From contig CBDASK010000003.1 in the NCBI GenBank assembly GCA_965199495.1, forward strand, positions 3,360,001 to 3,424,000: a stretch of DNA of 64,000 nt. Direction: 5' to 3'. This document shows, in pieces, positions 2,638 to 14,605 of the stretch. Below the pieces are notes generated by a model that was not told the DNA's origin, searched no databases, and worked only from the letters and a program-made list of their open reading frames with translations. This DNA comes from Abditibacterium sp. GTDB taxonomy: Bacteria > Armatimonadota > Abditibacteriia > Abditibacteriales > Abditibacteriaceae. How positions within the stretch are numbered: the stretch's first letter is position 1; each line of letters starts with the position of its first letter. A program made the translations under genes and the position numbers.

Positions 2638-3021
2638 TTATGCGGAGCGATTTTCCTGATTCGCCAGAACCGATTTGCGGTAGCCGTAAAGCAAGCGAGA
2701 CACTCCATCCAAATCTTCCGAGAGTTGGCGCGCAATTTCCATTGAAACATATCCAAGTTCGGGAGCTAATATCAAGTAATAGCGGCATTCTTCCAAAGAA
2801 CCTTGAGAGATATTAAGAAATCGCGCTTTATCGAGAGCACTTTCTTTTTTGTAGCCCTCAACGATATTCGCTGGAATTGATACCGCCGCTCGGCGCAACT
2901 GCGAAGTCAAGCCAAACATTTCGTGTTTGGGGAAGTCATTGCTACAACGGTAAATATCCAAGACAAATTGATGCGCCTTTTGCCAGACTAACAAATCTTG
3001 AAATTTTTGTGAAGGTCTCAT
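2638..3021 (-). CDS. four helix bundle protein (23S rRNA IVS-like family)
   Basis: FQDLLVWQKAH...FPKHEMFGLTSQLRRAAVSIPANIVEG...ARFLNISQGSLEE family signature. Confidence 0.92.
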   Translation of the reverse strand: MRPSQKFQDLLVWQKAHQFVLDIYRCSNDFPKHEMFGLTSQLRRAAVSIPANIVEGYKKESALDKARFLNISQGSLEECRYYLILAPELGYVSMEIARQLSEDLDGVSRLLYGYRKSVLANQENRSA

Positions 3022-3213: not shown

Positions 3214-3218
3214 TCCCC

Positions 3219-4613
3219 GTGCCAGAAATTCAGCTTTACAATACGCTTTCCCGTTCCAAAGAACCCTTGAAACCGCGCACGCCCGGCGAGATTTCGCTTT
3301 ACGTTTGCGGCGTCACGCCCTACGACAAACTTCACATCGGCCACGCGCGCGCGTTTTTGACTTACGACGTTTTGCGTCGCTTTCTCGAATCCAAAGGTTT
3401 GCACGTTCGCCATATCCAAAACGTCACCGATATTGACGATAAAATCATCAATCGCGCGCGCGAAGTCGGGCGCGATCCGCTCGAATTGGCCTCGCAGTTT
3501 CACGAAGATTCTCTGGTCGAACTCGCGCAATTGAACATTTTGCCCGCCAACGAATATCCGCGTGTCACCACGCATATCGCGCCAATTTTGGCGATGGTCG
3601 AAACTTTGGAACAAAAAGGCTATGCCTACGCCGCCGAAGGCGACGTTTATTTCGACGTGAGCAAAGACGACGATTACGGCAAACTCAGTGGCCAGCGCGT
3701 CGAAGAATTGAACGCGGGCGCGCGCATCGAGCCGGGCGACAAGAAAACCGATGCCGCCGATTTCGCCTTGTGGAAAGCCGCCAAACCCGATGAACCGTCG
3801 TGGCCCTCGGCTTATGGCGATGGGCGTCCGGGCTGGCACATCGAATGTTCGGCGATGGCTTTGGAACTGCTCGGCCCCGGCTTCGATATTCATGGCGGCG
3901 CGCGCGAATTAGTTTTTCCGCATCACGAAAACGAAATCGCGCAATCGGAAAGTTTTCTGCCGCACGGCGAAAACTTCGCCAACGTCTGGTGGCACTGCGG
4001 CGAACTGCGCGTCGGCGGCCAGAAAATGAGCAAGTCGCTGCACAACTTCGTCTCGCTCGACAACGCTTTGAACATGGCGCCCAAAAACGTCTGGCGCCTG
4101 TTATTCCTGCAAACGCACCCGCGTTCGCCACTCGATTATTCGCCGTCGGACAAAGAAATTTCGCTAACGGAGCCATCGAAAATTTTGGAACAAGCCAAAA
4201 GTTCGTGGAATCGAATCAACAACGCATTGGGCGAATTGCCGCCCGATGATGCAGCCACGTCTGACGTGGCTGCTGCGTTCGAGGCGCAATTCGATGCTGC
4301 ATTGTGCGACGATTTGAACACGCCCGAAGCTCTGGCGGCGGCGTTCGATGCAGTTTCCGAATACAATCGCGGCGGCGATTTGAGTCTGGCATGGGCGGCG
4401 CGCGGCGCTCTGGAAATGCTCGGCTTTAGCTTTGAAGTCGAAACCATCGGCGACGAATTGACGCCGCAATTGTTGGAATTGTTAATTCAGGTGCGCAACA
4501 GCGCGCGCGAACGGCGCGATTTCAAAGAATCGGATCGGATTCGCGACGGGTTGAAAAATTTGGGCATCGCTCTCGAAGATGGCGCGGATGGGACGAAATG
4601 GAAGCGCGAGTAG
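3219..4613 (+). CDS. cysS: cysteine--tRNA ligase
   Basis: GTG start; YVCGVTPY, HIGH, GRPGWHIECSAM, KMSKS motifs. Confidence 0.97.
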   Translation: MPEIQLYNTLSRSKEPLKPRTPGEISLYVCGVTPYDKLHIGHARAFLTYDVLRRFLESKGLHVRHIQNVTDIDDKIINRAREVGRDPLELASQFHEDSLVELAQLNILPANEYPRVTTHIAPILAMVETLEQKGYAYAAEGDVYFDVSKDDDYGKLSGQRVEELNAGARIEPGDKKTDAADFALWKAAKPDEPSWPSAYGDGRPGWHIECSAMALELLGPGFDIHGGARELVFPHHENEIAQSESFLPHGENFANVWWHCGELRVGGQKMSKSLHNFVSLDNALNMAPKNVWRLLFLQTHPRSPLDYSPSDKEISLTEPSKILEQAKSSWNRINNALGELPPDDAATSDVAAAFEAQFDAALCDDLNTPEALAAAFDAVSEYNRGGDLSLAWAARGALEMLGFSFEVETIGDELTPQLLELLIQVRNSARERRDFKESDRIRDGLKNLGIALEDGADGTKWKRE

Positions 4614-4640: not shown

Positions 4641-4710
4641 CCGTGAATTTTGAATTTGCCGTGTCCGCGAAGGCGGATAGTCGCGGACACGGCAAATTCA
4701 AGGTTCACGG
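4641..4710. repeat. 30-bp-arm palindrome between convergent genes (REP-like or bidirectional terminator)
   Basis: ccgtgaattttgaatttgccgtgtccgcga / tcgcggacacggcaaattcaaggttcacgg, 28/30 match, 10-nt loop; right arm contains the SMI1 stop codon. Confidence 0.85.
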
Positions 4711-5459
4711 CTATGGCACAGCCAATTTGCGTAATGCTCTTCGACCAAACCGCACGCGCGGCCCCAGGGCTTGGGCGCAAAAATTTTGGGTCGGCCACTG
4801 GGGTTCACGTTCATAATGCTCAACATTGTCTCGTCAATTGTCAATTGAAGCACGCCCGGTTCGAGCCGCTGATGAATCGTTTCGTGTTCTACGCCCGCTT
4901 TCATCATCGCGTTAATTCGCTCGAAGAGTTCGAGATGGCAGCGCATTGTTCCCAACCACCATTCGTCGAAAGTCGTGGCATAATTTACATCGCCCGCATA
5001 CGGACTAATGCCAGTTTCCCAGCGCGCGTCCCACCAAACTTCGCCCGCGTTCGGCCCCTTAAGCACCAACAGAAAATAGGTCGCGCAACCGTATTCGCCG
5101 ACTTCAATGACGCCGGGAATGGCGCTGTCCCACAATTCGTCGGGCGTCTCGCCGTTGAATGCCGTCGTCTCGGCATAGGGAAAATTTTGGTCGAGTTGCG
5201 GCGCGTCCAAACTCAACGGCGTCACGCCGTAATATGGGCCGGGGCCACCGTTGCCAAGTTCGGTGAGAAAGCGGCGATAAGCTAACGGTAGCACGACTGC
5301 GTAACGGCGCTCGAACGCTTCGACTTGCGCAATTGAAAGCGGCGCCGGGAAGCGGTAATTGTAACGCCCGGCGCCAAAGGCGACGCGGCGGCAGTCCAAC
5401 TTTGTTAATTTGGCGATTAACGTTTTGACCTCAGCGATGAAATCGGCGGAATCGTCCAT
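4698..5459 (-). CDS. SMI1/KNR4 (SUKH) family protein
   Basis: QVEAFERRYAVVLPLAYRRFLTELGNGG.GP.YG and GCA...L...G...GEVW motifs. Confidence 0.85.
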   Translation of the reverse strand: MDDSADFIAEVKTLIAKLTKLDCRRVAFGAGRYNYRFPAPLSIAQVEAFERRYAVVLPLAYRRFLTELGNGGPGPYYGVTPLSLDAPQLDQNFPYAETTAFNGETPDELWDSAIPGVIEVGEYGCATYFLLVLKGPNAGEVWWDARWETGISPYAGDVNYATTFDEWWLGTMRCHLELFERINAMMKAGVEHETIHQRLEPGVLQLTIDETMLSIMNVNPSGRPKIFAPKPWGRACGLVEEHYANWLCHSREP

Positions 5460-5594
5460 GATTTTATTTTAACGCGCGGCGAGACAAGCCGCGAAAGTTC
5501 TAAAATAGGTGCGCGTGGCTGTTTGGTTGGATAATGCGGAATTTCAATTTTTCTATTGGTTGTTTTTGTTGGTTGAGCGCACTAAATTTGTATT

Positions 5595-6623
5595 ATGAAT
5601 TATCATATTTTTCTCCTGTCGCTCGCCTTTGCTGTGCCCGTAGCGGCCTCTGTTCCGGAAAAAACGACGGAGAGCTGGCGACTGGTCGAACTGGTGCACT
5701 TGCGAGACTCCTTGACGAGCATGGGCCAGGTTCCTTACGGCATTACCGCGTCCGATGATTTGGTTGATGTTAACAGCGACAGATACAGCTTGAAAACTGG
5801 CGGTTTAGTCGAACAAATTGGTTTCCCCGCAGGGTTGGGTTCTTGGAATTACGGAATCGACTCCGACTCGGATCCCAATCGCAATCTGTTGGCTTTGTCT
5901 TTACAGGATAACCCGAACCAAACGTGGGCTTACCCGTTTCCGCCGACCGATAACTTCCTCAATTATGGCGATATGACCGTGCGTTTCGCGCCCGCAATAG
6001 ATCGCCTCGTGGTCACGCTCAATGGCACTTACACTCTTTGGAGCGTGCGTTCTCGTCGTTTGGAGCGCCGCGTTCGATTCGTGGATGCAGAAGCGCAACC
6101 CCACGCTTTCGGCCAGACGACGGCGCTTTCGCGCGACGGAAGCACCGTTGTTTATGCGGGTGTGAAGATGATTTTGACGGCCTCGACGCTCACCGGTCAG
6201 GTTTTAAACCGTGTTGCGATGCGGCCTTTAAGCACGAAGTATCTCGATCAGATCATTTTTGTCTCGCCTTTCGGTCGCTACGCGCTCTACGAAGCGCCCG
6301 TTGGGGCGGCTGTTTCGTCTAAAGCGCGCAAACTGACCGTGAGGGACACGCGCACAGGGCGCGCGAAGTGGGGTTTCACTTTGCCGCCCAATACTTCCAA
6401 TTCCTCTCTGGGAGATTGGCAAACCGCTTTCTCGTCCGACGAAACTCAAATCGCGGTGCCCGTGTCCGCACGAAACCTGTGGCGAATCCGCAGTTTACAA
6501 ACCGGCAAAACCATCCGCACCTTGCCACGACTGCGCGGCGCCCAAATCGCCGCCTTTTCGCCCGATAATGGCACGCTTTACTCCGTCGCCAACGGCGTTT
6601 TGTATCGCCAACGCGCGCGCTAA
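5595..6623 (+). CDS. exported WD40/beta-propeller-like protein, paralog 1
   Basis: Signal-peptide-like N-terminus; SRDG/FSSDE/FSPD blades; ends TLYSVANGVLYRQRAR. Confidence 0.75.
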   Translation: MNYHIFLLSLAFAVPVAASVPEKTTESWRLVELVHLRDSLTSMGQVPYGITASDDLVDVNSDRYSLKTGGLVEQIGFPAGLGSWNYGIDSDSDPNRNLLALSLQDNPNQTWAYPFPPTDNFLNYGDMTVRFAPAIDRLVVTLNGTYTLWSVRSRRLERRVRFVDAEAQPHAFGQTTALSRDGSTVVYAGVKMILTASTLTGQVLNRVAMRPLSTKYLDQIIFVSPFGRYALYEAPVGAAVSSKARKLTVRDTRTGRAKWGFTLPPNTSNSSLGDWQTAFSSDETQIAVPVSARNLWRIRSLQTGKTIRTLPRLRGAQIAAFSPDNGTLYSVANGVLYRQRAR

Positions 6624-6645
6624 AATTAAACTTTTGCTACAAATC

Positions 6646-9243
6646 ATGTCCCAAACTAATTCCGACGACGCCAAACCCAAACTCTCGCGCCGCGAATTTG
6701 TGGCCGCGAGCGCGATTTTAGGCGCCGTGGCTGCGACCGATAAATCGTTGCGCGCCGCCCCGCAGCCACGCGCAACGAATGCCGACCTTATGAACGTCAA
6801 AACGCCCGTCGCCAACCGCGCGCCGTTGCTGCCCACGCCGTTTGTCGCGTTGCCGTTGGGTTCGATTCGGGCGCGTGGCTGGTTGCTTACGCAGTTGCAA
6901 TTGCAACGCGACGGTTTGACTGGCCATGCCGACGAACTATTGCCCGCCGTCAAACAATCGGCGTGGCGCGACGGGCAGGGCGAAGATTGGGAAAAAGGGC
7001 CGTATTATCTCAAGGGTTTGGTGCCGCTCGCATATACGCTCGATGATGCCGAGTTGAAAGCGAAAGTTACGAGTTGGATCGAGCCAATTTTGGCATCGCA
7101 GCGCGCGGACGGGTTCTTCGGGCCGACGCAAAACGACGATTGGTGGCCGCGCATGGTGGCGACTTATCTGTTGCGCGACTATGCCGAAGCCACCGGCGAT
7201 GCGCGCATCGAACCGTTTTTGACGCGCTATTATCGGCACATGAGCGAACATTTGCCCGCGCGACCATTGCAACTGTGGGCGACAGCGCGCGCGGGCGACG
7301 AAATTGATACGATTTTCTGGCTCTACAATCGCACCGGCGACGAATTTTTATTGGGTTTGGCCGATTTGCTCCACGATCAAGCAATCGCGTGGACGGATAT
7401 TTTTACCGATAATACATTCGGCGAAAAAGGTTGGATGGAGCAGCACAACGTCAACGTGCCCCAAGCGCTGAAAATGCCGCCGGTTTATTATCAGAAATCG
7501 CACAGCGCACGCGACCGCGCGGCGTTTACCGTTGGATTGGCCAACTTAGATCGCGATCACGGCAGCAGTTTTGGCATCAATAACGGCGCCGAAAAGCTAT
7601 CGGGCCGTTCGCCGGGCGCGGGCGTTGAGACGTGTTCGATTGTCGAAAAATTATTATCTTCCCACACCGCACTACGCATTTTGGGCGACGCGACTATCGG
7701 CGATAACATCGAAATGTTGGCCTTCAATGCTTTGCCCGCCGCGCTTTCGTCCGATATTCACCAGCACGTCTATTACACCATTGCCAATCACGTCAAAGCG
7801 CCGCTGGGCAAGCTGGGTTTCGACGACGATCACGGCGACGACGTGACGCCCGCGCCGCGCGCGGGTTATCCGTGTTGCTGCTACAACTTGCACATGGGCT
7901 GGCCCAAAATCGTCCAGCACAGTTGGGCAGCCACGGCGGACGGCGGTCTGGCTTTGATGATTAATGTGCCCTCGCAAGTGACGGCACGCGTGGCCGATGG
8001 GCGCGTGGCGAACATCGAATGTCAGACCAATTATCCGTTTGAAGAGACGATTAATCTCACCGTGGGCGTAACGGCGATTTTCCCGCTCAAATTGCGCATA
8101 CCGCTTTGGTGCAAAAACGCCCAGATTAGAATTAATGGCAAAGCGCAGGCGCAGCCCCGCGCGGGCGCGTTCGCGACGATTAACCGGCAATGGCGCGATG
8201 GCGACCGTGTTGAATTGACCTTGCCTATGCCGGTTAAAGTTTCGCGCGGCGCGGGTAATTCGGCGTCGGTGACGCGTGGCCCGTTGTTATTTGCGCTGGG
8301 TTTGAACGAAAATTGGCGGGCTTTTGGCGCGGGCGAGCGCGAAGGCGCGCCGGGCTTTGAATCGTATCAGATCGACACCGATTCGTCGTGGAACTGGGCG
8401 CTCGAATTGAACCCAAAAGATGCGGCGCGTTCGTTTGCCATGACCAAAAATGCGATGCCCGAAAATCCGTTTGCGACGGGCCGCGCGCCGATTTCGCTGC
8501 AAGTCAACGCGCGCCGCGTGCCCGATTGGACGATGCGCCCGTCCGACGTGGCTGCCTTCGACCCGCCGCAAAGTCCGGTGGCGACAACAGCCAACACGCA
8601 ACCAATCACGCTCGTGCCATTCGGCTCGCAAATGCTGCGCGTGACCGATTTTCCCGTCGTCGGCACGCCCGCGCAAGCCGCGATTATGCCGCGCGTTTTC
8701 GCGGATAATTTCGACGACGGCCACATTGATGATTGGATTATTTACGGCGGCAACTGGTATGACCGCGATGGCGCTTTGCGTTTGCCAACTCAGCGCGGCG
8801 CCGGAATGATCGTCGCGCCCGCCGCGCGCTTCCGCGATTTCGTGATGGACGCGCAAATTATGCCGACCATTAACGGCGATTTGGGTTTGACATTTCGCAC
8901 CGATAATCCCGGAATGCTTTTGGACGAATATCAGGGTTATTACGTCGGGCTGCGCGCCTTCGATAATCAAGTCGTCATCGGGCGCAGCGATTTCGCTTGG
9001 CAACCGCTGCAATACGCGCCGCTCGAAATGAAGCCGGGCGAACCCTATCAAATGCGCATCGAAGCGCGCGGGCCACAAATTCGTGTTTGGGTTGGCAAAG
9101 AGGCGCCCGCCGATGGAGCCACGCCGACGATTGAGGTGCGCGACGACCGTTATTCCAGCGGCGCGATTGGCATTCGTTGTTACGGCGCCGACGACGGCAA
9201 AGATAAAGCGGGCTTCGCCCGGTTGCGCGTGCGGGCGATTTAA
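6646..9243 (+). CDS. Tat-exported glycoside hydrolase family 127-like protein with C-terminal DUF1080-like domain
   Basis: SRREFV twin-arginine motif; WEKGPY, HNVN, VETC, YPCCCYN, TNYPF, RIPLW, RGPLLF. Confidence 0.85.
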   Translation: MSQTNSDDAKPKLSRREFVAASAILGAVAATDKSLRAAPQPRATNADLMNVKTPVANRAPLLPTPFVALPLGSIRARGWLLTQLQLQRDGLTGHADELLPAVKQSAWRDGQGEDWEKGPYYLKGLVPLAYTLDDAELKAKVTSWIEPILASQRADGFFGPTQNDDWWPRMVATYLLRDYAEATGDARIEPFLTRYYRHMSEHLPARPLQLWATARAGDEIDTIFWLYNRTGDEFLLGLADLLHDQAIAWTDIFTDNTFGEKGWMEQHNVNVPQALKMPPVYYQKSHSARDRAAFTVGLANLDRDHGSSFGINNGAEKLSGRSPGAGVETCSIVEKLLSSHTALRILGDATIGDNIEMLAFNALPAALSSDIHQHVYYTIANHVKAPLGKLGFDDDHGDDVTPAPRAGYPCCCYNLHMGWPKIVQHSWAATADGGLALMINVPSQVTARVADGRVANIECQTNYPFEETINLTVGVTAIFPLKLRIPLWCKNAQIRINGKAQAQPRAGAFATINRQWRDGDRVELTLPMPVKVSRGAGNSASVTRGPLLFALGLNENWRAFGAGEREGAPGFESYQIDTDSSWNWALELNPKDAARSFAMTKNAMPENPFATGRAPISLQVNARRVPDWTMRPSDVAAFDPPQSPVATTANTQPITLVPFGSQMLRVTDFPVVGTPAQAAIMPRVFADNFDDGHIDDWIIYGGNWYDRDGALRLPTQRGAGMIVAPAARFRDFVMDAQIMPTINGDLGLTFRTDNPGMLLDEYQGYYVGLRAFDNQVVIGRSDFAWQPLQYAPLEMKPGEPYQMRIEARGPQIRVWVGKEAPADGATPTIEVRDDRYSSGAIGIRCYGADDGKDKAGFARLRVRAI

Positions 9244-9305
9244 GGTTTGAATTGTGGAAAAGGCGGGGCTACACGGTCTCGTCTTTTCTGTTTATAATTA
9301 GAGCA

Positions 9306-10322
9306 ATGAATCGCCGTTTTCTCATTGCGCTCGCCGCTATTGTTGTTCCCATTCCGCTTCGCTTGGCCCATGCCGCGCCGGACGAGCAGCCCGTTAAAGT
9401 CGCGTTAATTGCTCCGCCCAATGCGAATGGCCATCATCTGGCTGGGCCGGCGATTTCGTTTGGTATACGCGCTTCGGAACACGAAATTATTTTTCCGACA
9501 ATAAATAAGGCCGACGATTTAGAAAGTAAGCTCTTCAACTTCAAAACAAAAACGGTGCGCCCTTTGGAAGCGGAAGGCATCGTCGCTGGCGGTAATGGCG
9601 AGTGGCATTTTGTGGGCGGCGCGGCGCCTTATCTTGCGGTGCGTCAGGGCGCGTCGGCTGAGCGGCCCTACGCATTTCCCGTCGAAGACTTTGAGGAATT
9701 GAACGCGATGCCCACCGATTTATATCAAGATTCGGCGACCGTCGCGGCCAACGATGAGCGTGTCGAAATGGTGGTCGGCGCACACTATTATCGTTGGAAC
9801 GTCAAAACGCGCGCGTTGGAGATGAACGTCAATTGCGATATGGAAAGCGGTTTAGAAAATAAGTCGATTGCGCGCGATGGCGAAAGCATCATCAACGCGG
9901 ATTTAAGTGAAATTAGCGTGCTTTCGACGGAAACTGGCCAATTCACGCGCCACGACAAAGTGCCGCACGCGGGCGCCGATGGCGCTCATATTTCCGCGTT
10001 CGGCGCTTATTGCGTTTACGAACCGGTAACGAACTCGCAAGAGCAAATTTGGTCTGTCCTCGATACAGCCACGGCGGGCGAGCTGTGGAAATTTACGCTC
10101 GATAATTGGCAAAAAGATGTCGTTCTGTTTTCGCCCGACGAAAAATACCTCATCATCGGGCGCGGCGACCGCCAAATCTGGGAATTTCACGATGTCAAAA
10201 CCGGCGAAATCCTGAAGACATTGCCGATGGTTGCAGGCGCCAATTACGCCGCCTTTGCGCCCGATGGCGAAATGCTTTACAGCGTCGCCAATGGCGTGTT
10301 GTATCAACAGAGCGCGCGCTAA
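9306..10322 (+). CDS. exported WD40/beta-propeller-like protein, paralog 2
   Basis: MNRRFLIALAA signal peptide; ends FAPDGEMLYSVANGVLYQQSAR. Confidence 0.75.
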   Translation: MNRRFLIALAAIVVPIPLRLAHAAPDEQPVKVALIAPPNANGHHLAGPAISFGIRASEHEIIFPTINKADDLESKLFNFKTKTVRPLEAEGIVAGGNGEWHFVGGAAPYLAVRQGASAERPYAFPVEDFEELNAMPTDLYQDSATVAANDERVEMVVGAHYYRWNVKTRALEMNVNCDMESGLENKSIARDGESIINADLSEISVLSTETGQFTRHDKVPHAGADGAHISAFGAYCVYEPVTNSQEQIWSVLDTATAGELWKFTLDNWQKDVVLFSPDEKYLIIGRGDRQIWEFHDVKTGEILKTLPMVAGANYAAFAPDGEMLYSVANGVLYQQSAR

Positions 10323-10332
10323 ACTTACGGGC

Positions 10333-11346
10333 ATGAAACCTCTTGGCGTTTGCGGCGGCTTAGCCGCGTTTTTAACAGCGGCCTTGTTTATCGAGGCACC
10401 CTCGTTGGCACAGCCCACAACCGGGCCGCAACCGGTGAAAGTTATAAGGCCGCTCGACGCGAGCGTTCGGGATTATGCCGAACTCGATTTGCGGGTTTCG
10501 CCGCGCTACGCTGTGGCAGGCGCGGACTCGGCTTACACGCGCTTCGACTTACAAACCGGCGCGACATTGCCGCTGAAAAATGCCACCTTTATGTCGGACG
10601 ACGGATCGCTGGGCTTTCTCGAAATCAGCGACCTTTTGGCGTTGCAACTGCGCAAAGCTGGCAATCCCACCGCGATTTATCAGGCTCCGCCTTCCAAGCC
10701 GGGAAAGGCCACTCTGATTTCCGTGGGGCAACGCCCCGATTTTGTTCGAGTGACTCCGCAAACCAATCGCGTGGAGATGATTCAGGGCGGCTTTTATTGT
10801 CGCTGGAATCAGACCTCGCGCGCGCTGCAACGCCGCGTTGCCATTGGCAATATCGGTTCGGCTCAGACGGTTTCGCGCGATGGAGAAACCGTCATTTGCG
10901 CGGCTAAAAGCGCCATTTATCGCAACTCGACGCGCGCCGGACAAAAGCCCGTCAAGGTTTCGTTTCAGGGTTTTAATGTTTCCAAGGCCCGGCAAATTTT
11001 GCCCGATGGCAGCACCGCGATTTACGAAGCTGTCGCAGCGGCGGGCGGCAAAAGCGCGCCGTTATTGCGCATTGTCAATACCAAAAACGGGCGCGAACTG
11101 TGGAACGTAAAATGGAAAGCCGATGCGTCCGGTTATCACGATGCCGCCGTTTTCTCATCGGATGAAACGCTGCTGGCGATTCCGTTTACCGTGCGGAATC
11201 TATGGGAAATCCGCGCGACGAAAACTGGCGCATTGTTGCGCACTCTGCCGTTATTATCCAACGTGCAAGCCGCCGCGTTTTCGCCTGATAACGCCACGCT
11301 TTACAGCGCCGCCGATGGCGTATTGTATCGCCAAAGCGCGCGCTAA
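10333..11346 (+). CDS. exported WD40/beta-propeller-like protein, paralog 3
   Basis: Signal peptide; ends FSPDNATLYSAADGVLYRQSAR. Confidence 0.75.
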   Translation: MKPLGVCGGLAAFLTAALFIEAPSLAQPTTGPQPVKVIRPLDASVRDYAELDLRVSPRYAVAGADSAYTRFDLQTGATLPLKNATFMSDDGSLGFLEISDLLALQLRKAGNPTAIYQAPPSKPGKATLISVGQRPDFVRVTPQTNRVEMIQGGFYCRWNQTSRALQRRVAIGNIGSAQTVSRDGETVICAAKSAIYRNSTRAGQKPVKVSFQGFNVSKARQILPDGSTAIYEAVAAAGGKSAPLLRIVNTKNGRELWNVKWKADASGYHDAAVFSSDETLLAIPFTVRNLWEIRATKTGALLRTLPLLSNVQAAAFSPDNATLYSAADGVLYRQSAR

Positions 11347-11404
11347 AAACGTGCGCCACAGTCGAGGCCAAACGGTTTCGGCCTTTTGGGTTTATGCTTG
11401 AGTT

Positions 11405-12412
11405 ATGAAACCACAACAACGCGGCTGGATTTTTTTGTGCGCACTTTTGCCGTTACTTTTTGGCGGTTGGGCGTTGTTTTTGTCGCGACGGGCGCCGCGT
11501 TTTGGGCAGGAATGGCAACCGCAACGCTTGGGCAGTTTCTATGTTGAGACCCAAGCGGCTAATCCCGAATTGACGATATACGCGACCAAAGATGTCGTGC
11601 GCAGCAGTCACTATATTTTCGACTTGAAAACCAATAAAGGGCGCTATTCGGTTTATGGAAATGTGACGGGCGATGGTGCTGAAATGTGGGATTTGGTCGA
11701 GGACGCGCAAAAAACCTTGCATCTGCGCGTGGCGGGCGGCAAAAATCCGTTTCGTTATGAGGTGCCCGCCGCTTTGCAAAAGACGATTCGCAAAGACATC
11801 GGAGAGCAGACCGGCGCCGATTTCTTTCAGTGGGACGATAAAGTCGGTTTGTTGGCCAACACGCGTTTGTATCGGTGGCAGCAACGCGTCGCCAAGCCGC
11901 TCAGCCCGCTCAAAATTTCGGCGTCGGGCGATGGCATTGGCACCATTAACCAAGCTCGCAACGAGATAATTTATGCAGATGTCGCGGCGATTACGCGGTT
12001 TTCTCTGCGCGATGGCAAAATCATCAAACGTCTGCGCCCGCAGACCAGCGAGGATGTCGAATGGGTCTCACTTTCGGGCGCCGGGCGCTATGTGGGTTAT
12101 GGCGCGCCATTGAACTCTCATGGCACGAGTCGTCGCTTAAAATGGCAAATCTATCGGGTCGCCACCGAAAAATTCGTGTGGAGTTTCGAGACGCAAGACG
12201 AAGCCACGTCGGCTTTCTTCGCACGGGACGGGACGCGTCATGTGCTGGCGGTGCCTGCGCGCCAACTCTGGGAAATTCGCGATGGCGCAACCGGCAAAAT
12301 TCTGCGCGTCTTGCCGATGCTGCCGGGCACACGCGCGGGCGACCTTTCGCCCGATGGTGCCACGCTTTACTCGGTCGCAAACGGCGTTCTGTATCGCCAA
12401 CGCGCGCGCTAA
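11405..12412 (+). CDS. membrane-anchored WD40/beta-propeller-like protein, paralog 4
   Basis: N-terminal TM helix; ends LSPDGATLYSVANGVLYRQRAR. Confidence 0.75.
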   Translation: MKPQQRGWIFLCALLPLLFGGWALFLSRRAPRFGQEWQPQRLGSFYVETQAANPELTIYATKDVVRSSHYIFDLKTNKGRYSVYGNVTGDGAEMWDLVEDAQKTLHLRVAGGKNPFRYEVPAALQKTIRKDIGEQTGADFFQWDDKVGLLANTRLYRWQQRVAKPLSPLKISASGDGIGTINQARNEIIYADVAAITRFSLRDGKIIKRLRPQTSEDVEWVSLSGAGRYVGYGAPLNSHGTSRRLKWQIYRVATEKFVWSFETQDEATSAFFARDGTRHVLAVPARQLWEIRDGATGKILRVLPMLPGTRAGDLSPDGATLYSVANGVLYRQRAR

Positions 12413-12504
12413 ACTTTAGGATATGAATCGTCGCCCCACCGCGCGTCATCGCGGTTTCGGGACTCATCAAACCGGCGCTAAACTTTAGGATATGAATCGT
12501 CGCC
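12406..12504 (+). repeat. exact 30-bp direct repeat (12406-12435, 12475-12504) with a 39-bp spacer
   Basis: gcgctaaactttaggatatgaatcgtcgcc occurs twice. Confidence 0.95.
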
Positions 12505-13472
12505 TCCTTCTCATTGCGCTTGCTGTCGCGTTGCCGGTTGTCAGTTTTGCCGCGCCGAAAAAGGCGCCCATATTTTCCGCGAAATTCCGTCCGATTGTGG
12601 TGGGCAAAGTCGCGGGCGCCGACTCCGCTTTTGACGCCACTACGCGCTATCTGTTGGTTTACGGAAATAAAACTGGCGAGACTTTGTTCGATCTGAAAAC
12701 CGGCGCGCGACGGCCTTTGCAGGAAAGCGAGGGCATCGCTTCCAACGGCGCTTGGAAGTGGAAGTTACGCTTTGGTCGCACCGTCCAATTGGAGTTGCGT
12801 CACGCCAACGGCCCCAGCTCGCGTTACGATTGCCCAAAGTTCGAGGGCGACGGAATGAAGCCGCTATCGCCCGATTGGATTCGCATCGCGCCCGAACGCA
12901 ATCGGCTCGAAGCGTTGTTGATGAACCGTTGCTATCGCTGGGAATTGCGGTCGGGGCGCCTGATTTCTAATGTTGCAATGCCGTGTTTTGACGGCTCCGT
13001 CGCCGCATCATCCACGTCGCCCGATGTTTTGGTCAAAGCGAGCGATAATGGCACTGGCATTAATTTCATGTCCATCGGTTCGGGACGGCGAGTTCGTCAC
13101 GTCACCCTGCGAGCGCCATCGAATTTTACCGATGACCAATTCGCGCCCGGTGGTTCTTACGCGATTTGCACTGATAATAATCGCATTGGGCCATCCGAGC
13201 GCAATTTGGTGGTAGACACCCGCACCGGGCGCGTGTTGTGGAAGTTTGCCCTGACCCATTGGCGTGATAGCTCTTGCTTCTCGCCCGATGGAAAGCGTTT
13301 GGCGGTGCCGCAGAGCAAACGCCAGCAATGGGAAATCCGTGACTCTAAAACTGGCGTAATTCTGCACATATTGCCGCTTGTGACCGACGTTCACTCCGCC
13401 CCGTTTTCGCCTGATGGGTTTACGCTTTATTCCGTCGCCAACGGTGTGTTGTATAAGCAACGCGCGCGCTAA
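12492..13472 (+). CDS. exported WD40/beta-propeller-like protein, paralog 5
   Basis: MNRRLLLIALAV signal peptide; ends FSPDGFTLYSVANGVLYKQRAR. Confidence 0.75.
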   Translation: MNRRLLLIALAVALPVVSFAAPKKAPIFSAKFRPIVVGKVAGADSAFDATTRYLLVYGNKTGETLFDLKTGARRPLQESEGIASNGAWKWKLRFGRTVQLELRHANGPSSRYDCPKFEGDGMKPLSPDWIRIAPERNRLEALLMNRCYRWELRSGRLISNVAMPCFDGSVAASSTSPDVLVKASDNGTGINFMSIGSGRRVRHVTLRAPSNFTDDQFAPGGSYAICTDNNRIGPSERNLVVDTRTGRVLWKFALTHWRDSSCFSPDGKRLAVPQSKRQQWEIRDSKTGVILHILPLVTDVHSAPFSPDGFTLYSVANGVLYKQRAR

Positions 13473-14605
13473 AATACCACGCCGACGTTGCCGTAAAGCC
13501 GAAATTTATCGCCGTTCAAACGGCGGCCATAACCCAAATCCACGTAACGGTTCACGGTCAATCCAACGCCCGCATACGGGCCGCGTCCGCTCAAACCGGC
13601 GTCGGCATGAACGAGCGATTGGTGATTCGATTTTTTGATAATCGGATATTGGAAAGTCACGGCGGGCGTGATGTTGGAATCCAAACCAAACAGCAAACCG
13701 GTTTTGACGGTTGGCGCGTAGACGCGGGGAATCGGCGCGTCGGTTTTGCCGTTCCAGTTGTTAGTCAAAAATTTATAGGTCGCATTTTCGGCAGAAGTGA
13801 CGCCCAAAAATAATCCATAGTGGCCGATGTCGAGCCATTGAATTGGCGGACGGCCCAACGCTTCCCACAGTTCGGTCGAGGCGCGGCGCGGGATGATTTG
13901 GTCACGCGCGGCTTGAATCATCAAAACGTGGCGTGGGCGGTTGCGGTCGGCGTAGTAAAGCGGGTCGGCCAGCGCCAAGTCGGCTTCGGTGATTTTAGCG
14001 GGGTCAATCGTTTTACGCACATTCAAGAACAGTTTGGCGAGCGTCGAGAGTTGCGCGATTTCTTTCAAGTCGCCACCGCCGACAAGTGCCACGCCGTTGT
14101 TGAGACGTTCGTCGCGGCCCATCGCCAGATGCGTGACAATCGCCCCCAGACTGACGCCCGCGATGCCCAATTTGTCGGGATTCACTTCGGGTTGGGTTTG
14201 CAACCAATTGGCGATAGTCGAACAATCGGACGCCGCCTGATTGAACGCGCTCGCCAAAATTTTGGGGTCGTCGGACACGTAAAATTTGACTGGCGCGCGG
14301 CCAACGGCGCGGTCGTAATGATAGGGCAACTGCATCACGACGGCGTTGACGCCGCGCGCGCTGAGATATTTGGCGAAACGCTGCGAAACTTCGATGCCGC
14401 CGCCCAACAAATGCAACAGAATCGCGGCGGGCGCTTTTTGGCTGTTCACGTTCTGCGCGGGATAAAACGTCAGGTGAATCACGTCGTTGCGTGGGTAGCC
14501 GGAGTTGATGGCCGAGGGCAAAGTGACATCGCGCGTTTGTGCACCCGCTAAAGTCGGGAATAACGCAACGAGGAAAACGAGTAGAACGCGCGGGAAAAAT
14601 TTCAT
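13469..14605 (-). CDS. exported alpha/beta hydrolase
   Basis: Signal peptide; GVSLG nucleophile elbow, D..IP, GH catalytic triad pattern. Confidence 0.8.
   Translation of the reverse strand: MKFFPRVLLVFLVALFPTLAGAQTRDVTLPSAINSGYPRNDVIHLTFYPAQNVNSQKAPAAILLHLLGGGIEVSQRFAKYLSARGVNAVVMQLPYHYDRAVGRAPVKFYVSDDPKILASAFNQAASDCSTIANWLQTQPEVNPDKLGIAGVSLGAIVTHLAMGRDERLNNGVALVGGGDLKEIAQLSTLAKLFLNVRKTIDPAKITEADLALADPLYYADRNRPRHVLMIQAARDQIIPRRASTELWEALGRPPIQWLDIGHYGLFLGVTSAENATYKFLTNNWNGKTDAPIPRVYAPTVKTGLLFGLDSNITPAVTFQYPIIKKSNHQSLVHADAGLSGRGPYAGVGLTVNRYVDLGYGRRLNGDKFRLYGNVGVVF

Follow-up and report, generated by a model that had tools for sequence, protein, structure and literature searches.

Integron cassette arrays, shufflons and diversity-generating retroelements all carry variable cargo between constant ends. 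The esaG and tipC tandem immunity arrays of type VII secretion and the Staphylococcus aureus lpl cluster are described, in passages of PMC9484751, as altering their copy number by homologous recombination, and promoter/stem-loop (PeSL) cassettes of T4-type phages are described in parts of PMC2839356. Here we analyse an array of five genes for predicted WD40 propellers (W1 to W5) in a stretch of 64,000 nucleotides (nt) of Abditibacterium sp. (assembly GCA_965199495.1, contig CBDASK010000003.1, positions 3,360,001 to 3,424,000; hereafter the window, whose coordinates are used throughout). An earlier, sequence-only reading of this DNA had seen in the array a diversifying family that expands by recombination between conserved ends. 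The overall explanation that we favour on balance is a set of exchangeable, likely exported propellers that would be swapped at their ends, each type binding a different outside molecule.

All five co-oriented genes listed by that reading are present on the plus strand: W1 (5595..6623, 342 amino acids, aa), W2 (9306..10322, 338 aa), W3 (10333..11346, 337 aa), W4 (11405..12412, 335 aa) and W5 (12492..13472, 326 aa), with W1 in the first and W5 in the last slot. Each of them ends in the terminal motif that had been claimed for the family, and the conserved tail, i.e., the last 26 codons plus the stop, lies at 13392..13472 in W5 and at 6543-6623, 10242-10322, 11266-11346 and 12332-12412 in W1 to W4. 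The proteins share only 24-32% pairwise identity, so that the description of their middles as barely alignable captured the divergence and was a little strong in its wording, since they can be aligned from end to end. Thirty-two columns are invariant among the five proteins, 13 of which fall within the last 20 residues. A profile of the last 25 aa matched W1-W5 and nothing else among 41,754 six-frame open reading frames (ORFs) of the genome (domain E <= 1.4e-15; next best 0.8). A contig of 3,287 nt from run X1, possibly the source sample, covers positions 10260-13546 with zero differences, and the right half of the array is therefore not an assembly artefact.

Histories of gene ends and gene bodies

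We compared the tails of family members with their middles in eight independent pairs whose middles are 62-89% identical. The last 26 residues of these pairs differ at 52 sites, where 20.4 differences would be expected from a shared history and 61.6 if the tails had been shuffled; seven control windows in the same tail-uncoupling test gave ratios of 0.84-1.28. Matched conserved columns of the middles showed 17/206 differences compared with 52/208 in the tail (Fisher p 5e-6), and in closer pairs the identity of these columns rises from 0.67 to 0.96 while that of the tail stays flat at 0.65-0.82. Three duplicates and one half of a fusion protein were left out before both tests. A slowly evolving tail alone would give near-identical tails in close pairs; the observed tails differ, so slow evolution is insufficient. 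Only one close pair, W2 and gene b of the relative G004, comes from two assemblies that are both contiguous, and it has 9 tail differences compared with 4.2 expected. W2 is of the same type as this gene (59%) and as P0017 (83% in the middle).

At the 5' end, genes b and c of G004, which are 37% alike, share 70 identical nt, and the proportion of synonymous differences (pS) is 0.12 there versus 0.65 in the middle. The first-slot genes of four genomes encode proteins that are 32-41% alike, and nevertheless over the last 120 nt they form the most similar of all 715 four-gene sets among 13 genes (78.5% versus 71.6%; a post hoc comparison, run without G4_solo and the fusion on account of indels). 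Judged from these sequence comparisons, bodies and ends have different histories, and recombination-driven exchange at the gene ends is likely. The uncoupled tails and the 5' tract are thus in line with the reshuffling at conserved ends that the earlier reading had proposed.

The conserved 3' DNA noticed in that reading was also recovered. The pattern gtat..gcgcgcgctaaa occurs five times in the 4.8 Mb genome, every time inside the array, and the ungapped DNA identity of W1-W5 in 30-nt bins back from the stop is 0.86, 0.73, 0.61, 0.62, 0.61, 0.45, 0.49 and 0.28. Much of this identity, however, follows from protein identity and codon-context bias, and the coding that the genome favours for FSPD, TLY, GVL and RAR is the coding seen in the tails. 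The conserved DNA was not accepted as proving that a recombination site exists, since codon-context correction removes most of the conservation and leaves only a residual excess. After this correction, synonymous identity over the last 26 codons is 0.69 within genomes and 0.72 among W1-W5, versus 0.50 expected, which is comparable to orthologous neighbours between these species (0.64-0.75); the last six codons show an excess identity of 0.83-0.91 versus 0.48. Synonymous sites in the middles are saturated (0.43 observed, 0.44 expected, ratio 0.98), and pS among W1-W5 falls from 0.71 to 0.36. The codon statistics exclude the internal fusion half and those genes that are partial or frameshifted (G3_b, G12_c, M48_a). 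Codon-context bias is very strong throughout G000, the genome of the window; leucine before tyrosine, for instance, is encoded by CTT in 45% of cases compared with 7% overall.

Fast diversification via point mutation was not seen in either of two comparisons. Two alleles of W1 differ by 6 silent and 3 replacement changes, and W2 and its ortholog by a proportion of nonsynonymous differences (pN) of 0.25 against a pS of 0.54; selection within a propeller type, as read from these counts, is purifying. A special link between W2 and W5 through their MNRR start was likewise not upheld, this start being family-wide (43/84).

In relatives, the array occupies a slot with fixed borders. On the left lies a gene at 3216..4613 (+, start approximate), which we take from its motifs to be cysS, encoding cysteinyl-tRNA synthetase, and on the right a convergent alpha/beta-hydrolase gene (13469..14605, -), whose stop overlaps that of W5. 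Between the two, G000 holds five propellers, G004 four, G011 one, L045 four in three genes, and L044 at least one, and other types stand in the first slot of relatives. Array content is therefore not fixed (1, 4, 4 or 5 propellers), in agreement with the earlier expectation that it would differ, although the variation is mostly between species and strain-level data are thin. The slot neighbours are 73-96% identical as proteins between relatives. When the window was compared with the relatives' loci by blastn, these neighbours aligned at 77-89%, the ortholog of W2 was followed as well, and the other propeller bodies dropped out save for their last 70-200 nt. In a second subclade, one to three copies, two of them frameshifted, lie behind a gene that we presume to be aspartate-kinase-like; the frameshifted copies are those in G012 and L048.

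In a tree of the middles, W1-W5 do not group together, and W2, W3, W4 and W5 each have a closer (starred) relative from another source. On this evidence the window genes are drawn from an old shared pool rather than being recent local duplicates, which does not support the in-place expansion suggested previously. Metagenomic contigs point to gene loss or gain and to transfer between lineages. A contig of X4 carries a W3 allele 98% identical to that of the window (15 differences in 773 nt), joined directly to a hydrolase gene that differs at 27/201 positions, with genes 4 and 5 skipped. X2, a lichen metagenome, holds the neighbouring SMI1 gene and W1 at 16 differences in 1,877 nt, and 12 of the 14 listed cysS sites, plus the 10 listed hydrolase sites that were covered, differ in all X2 contigs compared. 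The lack of cover over genes 3-5 in X2 was not counted as evidence, nor was a joint from 6625 to 13470 in X1, X2 and X3, which probably derives from the tails of other paralogs.

Full-length matches to the family were found in five of the 12 other genomes of the genus, with a sister-family match only in a sixth, and in 0/14 genomes from other genera of the same family; among the genomes scanned, full-length members thus occur in Abditibacterium only. A one-genome-per-species scan gave 11 loci, five with long matches, all in records labelled Abditibacterium, Abditibacteriales or Abditibacteriota. In a protein library clustered at 50%, 188 entries matched at E <= 1e-30, where family members are mixed with long generic WD40 proteins; the pool runs to roughly 80 types or more that are less than 50% identical. 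None of 22 pattern matches in viral contigs is a relative of the family, and no RNA holder of it is listed. It is unnamed in Pfam and NCBIfam, and no paper describing it was found in a literature search that left subscription journals and supplements outside. Sister propellers with similar N-termini and aromatic-R-x-R-x-R ends (YRWRAR/WRWRLR) occur as single copies in G000 (C3:3085335, 4110172 and 641522), and a tandem pair in G002 (L037:487-2496) has near-identical tails and divergent middles.

Predicted fold, junctions and export

We modelled W5 with AlphaFold (AF2) from an 84-row alignment of the five window proteins and 79 chosen near-full-length database proteins. The model (predicted local distance difference test, pLDDT, 91.8; predicted template modelling score, pTM, 0.85) starts with a helix at residues 3-20, and its strand list was read as seven blades. 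The tail is modelled as paired strands (305, 311-316 and 319-324; pLDDT 95-98). It is accordingly predicted to provide blade 7 with its three inner strands, and the N-terminal strand 35-39 to close this blade, a velcro closure of the kind described for WD40 propellers in a part of PMC5587647. Both conserved ends would thus build one blade beside the signal or anchor helix, with the variable loops predicted on the opposite (top) face. The best Foldseek matches of the model were G-beta and PkwA WD40 propellers (E about 1e-12), and the family profile matched the bacterial WD40 protein 2ymu at E 1e-42 as well as WDR5, Apaf-1 and RACK1. The repeats are strongly degenerate: no window propeller reached the Pfam WD40 cut-off, single proteins gave sub-threshold Pfam propeller matches only, with none for W1 and W4, and the ESM Atlas returned generic propeller clusters only (0.87-0.94).

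Across 104 sequences, blade 7 is 76% identical compared with 21-45% for the other blades. Identity is 15-18% in the loops assigned to the top face, whose length varies, and 36-45% in the bottom loops, whose length is nearly fixed. The tail ends in RQRAR in 83/104 sequences, and residue Q323 is invariant across the 84 aligned sequences. Among the three roles offered for the tail by the sequence-only reading, the propeller-closing strand fits the AF2 model, and the tail is very likely structural in the main rather than a sorting signal. In its structure it corresponds to an ordinary last WD40 blade, while its sequence, as the profile of the last 25 aa shows, is specific to the family. We also found a natural head-to-tail fusion of two family propellers (P0018, L045:5967-7982), whose internal unit lacks the consensus tail.

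Some of the tails run directly into the predicted promoters of the next genes. A TANNNT box, which the earlier reading had not reported, stands 6-7 nt before the start in all five window genes and is twice formed by the upstream stop codon. It lies at 5583..5588 (+), 6 nt before W1; at 9293-9298 (TATAAT), 7 nt before W2 and behind a terminator-like hairpin at 9254-9291 (together 9254..9298, +); at 10320..10325 (+; TAAACT, the first half of which is the W2 stop codon), 7 nt before W3; and at 11393-11398 (TATGCT), 6 nt before W4 and behind a hairpin at 11361-11382 (11361..11398, +). The boxes before W2 and W4 are consensus matches only. A TANNNT 6-8 nt before the start was found in 17/24 family genes compared with about 9% of 2,879 first-ATG genes, and genome-wide TAAACT peaks 6-9 nt before starts. 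In a part of PMC3160421, a TANNNT box located some 12 nt upstream of the start is given as a mark of leaderless genes, and the window genes are predicted to be leaderless, each with its own promoter. Family genes with a paralog close behind end in TAA in 10/10 cases and in TAAACT in 6/10, compared with 9/15 and 1/15 elsewhere. A scan for canonical sigma-70 promoters gave 5 sites versus 5.5 expected, none of them at the junctions. Terminator-like hairpins numbered 23 versus 19.5 expected, so that only the two longest are mentioned here. Shine-Dalgarno sites are few in G000 (277/2,879), where boxes of the TAAACT/CAAACT type lie 6-9 nt before starts.

Most family starts contain a twin-arginine-like region followed by a basic residue and often AxA, which resembles the twin-arginine translocation (Tat) motif, Z-R-R-x-hydrophobic-hydrophobic before the h-region, as described in a part of PMC13673990. 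RRx followed by two hydrophobic residues occurs in 57/82 family starts (22 strict) versus 14/476 signal-like proteins of the genome, the family members being kin rather than independent cases. In the window, the start of W2 is twin-arginine-like, that of W1 signal-peptide-like without twin arginine, and that of W4 membrane-anchor-like. TatC was found in 13/13 genomes of the genus. Judged by these starts, the propellers are likely exported, presumably via Tat for most of the family and probably via the general secretory (Sec) route for W1, W3 and W4.

Mechanism, function and rival explanations

In the proposed mechanism, the array is an exchangeable gene set for predicted seven-bladed, likely exported propellers, whose bodies are likely swapped, gained and lost through ordinary homologous recombination that takes place in the genes' conserved ends. 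The block formed by last blade, stop codon with -10 box, start and signal peptide would serve as a shared crossover zone; a standard closing blade would let chimeras fold, and each gene would bring along a leaderless promoter and an export signal of its own. Among the donors would be other species of the genus, ComEC being present in the genome. Each type would likely bind a different outside molecule, most likely a protein of a rival. The anatomy of the array, with an export signal, a fixed bottom, a hypervariable top face, many stable types and gain, loss and transfer of genes, suggests a panel of binding proteins. As their function, orphan immunity or decoy binding is our first, still tentative choice, because W1 is accompanied by the SMI1/KNR4 gene in X2 and because the known arrays most like this one are made up of immunity genes. 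It is tempting to speculate further, on what would be an unlikely but far-reaching scenario, that the family is a recombinase-free, genus-wide, antibody-like repertoire, with a constant frame (promoter, twin-arginine signal, closing blade) and a hypervariable face, whose dozens of types are traded among co-occurring Abditibacterium species via DNA uptake and closing-blade crossover, with a separate toxin, phage protein or host factor neutralised by each.

Several observations weigh against this picture. Most of the eight close pairs come from short metagenome contigs, in which mis-joining at shared tails is possible, one pair runs in the opposite direction (1 difference versus 3.9 expected), and the tails of last-slot genes have no special similarity, so that slot-linked tails are not seen there. 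Codon-context bias explains much of the tail DNA identity, and the tails within the window's genome are only 68-83% identical over 78 nt, a low value for efficient recombination by RecA, so that exchange has to be infrequent or to rely on more similar donors. The depth of the X4 contig is 2, and the X2 contigs end in the tail, where linkage is not shown. The aromatic-R-x-R-x-R ends of the sister family imply that a protein-level constraint on the tail is also at work, and a conserved bottom with variable top loops is common to WD40 folds. Twin arginine is present, in a loose form, in two of the five window genes only (W2 and W5) and missing from W1, W3 and W4, and TIGR01409 matches 2/84 family sequences. 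As to function, the analysis identified neither a ligand nor a partner or toxin; inspection of 12 loci by eye showed no toxin-like neighbour (flanks not scanned against Pfam); RHS and VipB had no match in the window's own genome, which is 95% complete; and SMI1 is found in 2/5 loci of the slot, with six SMI1 matches in the genome. None of seven proteins matched the anti-phage defence models of PADLOC.

The locus could alternatively be a plain birth-and-death family, in which old tandem duplicates are randomly lost and the tail is kept by protein-level selection, as a closing blade or a common docking surface, with no recombination at the ends. That the tail forms the closing blade, that its silent changes include serine codon-family switches, that much of the DNA motif is reproduced by codon-context bias, that sister propellers keep their aromatic-R-x-R-x-R ends and that frameshifted copies exist would all fit. 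This explanation nevertheless appears distinctly unlikely, given that tail identity stays flat as the matched middle columns climb, that a 70-nt conversion tract lies at the 5' end, that slot 1 tails stay while bodies change, and that near-identical alleles occur within otherwise diverged backgrounds. A cassette system specialised for site-specific exchange, whether like an integron or shufflon or in the form of a diversity-generating retroelement, that acts on a site in the tail through an enzyme encoded elsewhere would account for the excess identity of the last six codons, the self-contained promoter-gene units and the exact 30-nt repeat at the gene 4/gene 5 junction. The last codons can, however, be accounted for by their overlap with the -10 box, similarity fades gradually across about 200 nt, all genes are co-oriented, and the viral contigs are without any family member. 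As stated in the earlier reading, no recombinase or reverse transcriptase is visible in the window, where searches for tyrosine recombinase, serine recombinase and reverse transcriptase gave no match (transposases were not searched). Beyond the window, the genome has three PF00589 tyrosine recombinase matches, none within 600 kb (the closest at a distance of about 610 kb); neither a serine recombinase nor a reverse transcriptase was matched within 800 kb, and both reverse transcriptase matches are over 1.7 Mb away. A repeat scan found no recurrent inverted repeat after the genes, no attC-like hairpins and no template-like repeat. We consider such a system extremely improbable. Six large serine recombinases (open frames of 541-770 aa) are encoded elsewhere in G000 (C3:1122385, 1168896, 1211620, 417058, 439814 and 4291782), three of them within a span of 90 kb.

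A C-terminal sorting or secretion signal, or a tail that must stay free for docking on a conserved machine, would agree with the high identity of blade 7, the invariant Q323 and the loss of the consensus tail in the internal half of the two-propeller fusion. It is very unlikely all the same: the tail is modelled as paired strands with high pLDDT, an N-terminal export signal is already present, and 21/104 sequences depart from RQRAR, even at the terminal residue, with variants such as RQRTH, RQRAN, QQRAQ and QQSAR speaking against the sorting signal among the roles named earlier. Loss of the tail in the fusion would also be expected if homogenising works at gene ends only. A role of the propellers in binding glycans or other ligands ranks second after immunity or decoy and is possible but rather doubtful. 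The same doubt applies to its more specific form, a glycan- or nutrient-binding panel for lichen or plant surfaces that works with GH127 instead of serving in conflict. GH127 lies within the array in G000, G004 and L044, one holder is a lichen metagenome, and the top face is variable; on the other side, GH127 is deleted or absent in 3/5 slot loci and at every aspartate-kinase-type locus, no transporter gene was seen beside the arrays, and no lectin or solute-binding family matched.

Surroundings of the array and comparison with known systems

The two neighbours named in the sequence-only reading were both retrieved by Pfam: a GH127 beta-L-arabinofuranosidase-family gene inside the array (6646..9243, +; E 7e-18) and a SMI1/KNR4 (SUKH) gene divergent from W1 (4698..5459, -; E 9e-8). 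GH127 has an intact start at the slot in L044, is internally deleted in G004 and is absent in G011 and L045, and a close paralog lies elsewhere in the genome at G000:C3:4462641. In the G004 copy (L021:10637-11391) the deletion spans about 1.9 kb and leaves the gene broken. Between the convergent cysS and SMI1 genes lies a long hairpin (4641-4710) with 30-nt arms that are 93% complementary; its core has weak matches at about eight further genome sites, and an Rfam identity at 4647-4704 was rejected, with miRNA-like chance matches only. The alpha/beta hydrolase at 13469-14605 (-) is exported, occurs in 10/13 genomes of the genus and has a C-terminal stretch of alternating hydrophobic residues with Phe as the last residue, which we take to resemble the ends of outer-membrane barrels. 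Further upstream, a multi-pass membrane protein (470-2551, +; DUF6785/DUF6784) is followed by a short ORF (2638-3021), presumably four-helix-bundle-like.

Where gene 4 meets gene 5, a 39-nt insert is enclosed by an exact direct repeat of 30 nt (12406-12435 and 12475-12504, +), a feature that the earlier reading had not reported. The insert matches another chromosomal site over 22 nt, and its origin from a sixth paralog was dismissed (best score 33 versus 33 for shuffles). The genome encodes cas1 (C3:2765135) beside a CRISPR array of 131 repeats (from C3:2766475) with a 29-nt repeat and periods of 62-68, and 5/13 isolated short direct repeats in the genome have periods of 65-69. Off-target spacer integration is mentioned in a part of PMC7054753. 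The period of 69 exceeds the range of the CRISPR array by one, and the duplicated bases are unlike the CRISPR repeat; for the 69-bp unit, off-target spacer integration and a junction recombination scar appear about equally plausible. Other repeat-insert-repeat units with periods of 65-69 lie at G000:C3:165011, 1735082, 1874313 and 2663048, several with inserts that match other chromosomal sites; together with the window unit they are candidates for natural off-target Cas1-Cas2 spacer integrations. One spacer of the array is a perfect, self-targeting match to C3:593119-593155, and G000:C3:4231363 holds another, minimal pair of CRISPR-like repeats (31-nt repeat, period 61), which belongs to a different type.

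Among described proteins, Nostoc 2YMU and Thermomonospora PkwA are close in profile and fold, with a seven-bladed propeller and velcro closure, as far as PMC5587647 covers them; the window propellers differ in their degenerate repeats, their N-terminal export signal or anchor, their family-specific last blade and their tandem arrays. The array has variable cargo between constant ends in common with integrons, shufflons and diversity-generating retroelements, but no adjacent integrase, invertase or reverse transcriptase, no attC-like sites and no template repeat; unlike in the retroelements, the C-terminus is here the conserved part. The PeSL cassettes, in the parts of PMC2839356 that describe them, resemble the array in that an expression module is repeated before each gene as a crossover zone through which modules are shuffled, and a terminator-like hairpin and -10 box precede W2 and W4. 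The present case, by contrast, is set in a bacterial chromosome, its homology is mostly coding (last blade and signal peptide), and it has no -35 consensus.

The closest likeness is to the esaG/tipC and lpl arrays as portrayed in passages of PMC9484751, which are strings of non-identical paralogs with homology blocks at gene ends or intergenic regions and no dedicated recombinase. Tandem paralogs with homology blocks at their ends, a copy number that varies between relatives and signatures of recombination in the blocks were all found here; a cognate toxin gene, present in some genomes for the known arrays, was not seen at the 12 loci viewed by eye (Pfam scanning did not extend to the flanks). 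In contrast to what those passages describe, the window array has a WD40 propeller fold, far less identical bodies, some 80 or more types below 50% identity and a junction that doubles as a predicted leaderless promoter, and neither a cognate toxin nor a secretion locus was found. One short block may thus act as the closing blade of the fold, stop codon, predicted promoter of the next gene and crossover zone, and such a block would account for the exchange of highly divergent binding proteins as units ready for expression in the absence of a recombinase. Should the individual types recognise distinct outside proteins, the family would offer a naturally occurring collection of WD40 binders from a phylum that has seen little study, and with it a direct way to learn what these bacteria have to defend themselves against; otherwise it is an ordinary array of paralogs whose ends evolve in concert. 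By analogy, then, the array works like known recombining paralog arrays, with immunity as a tentative role.

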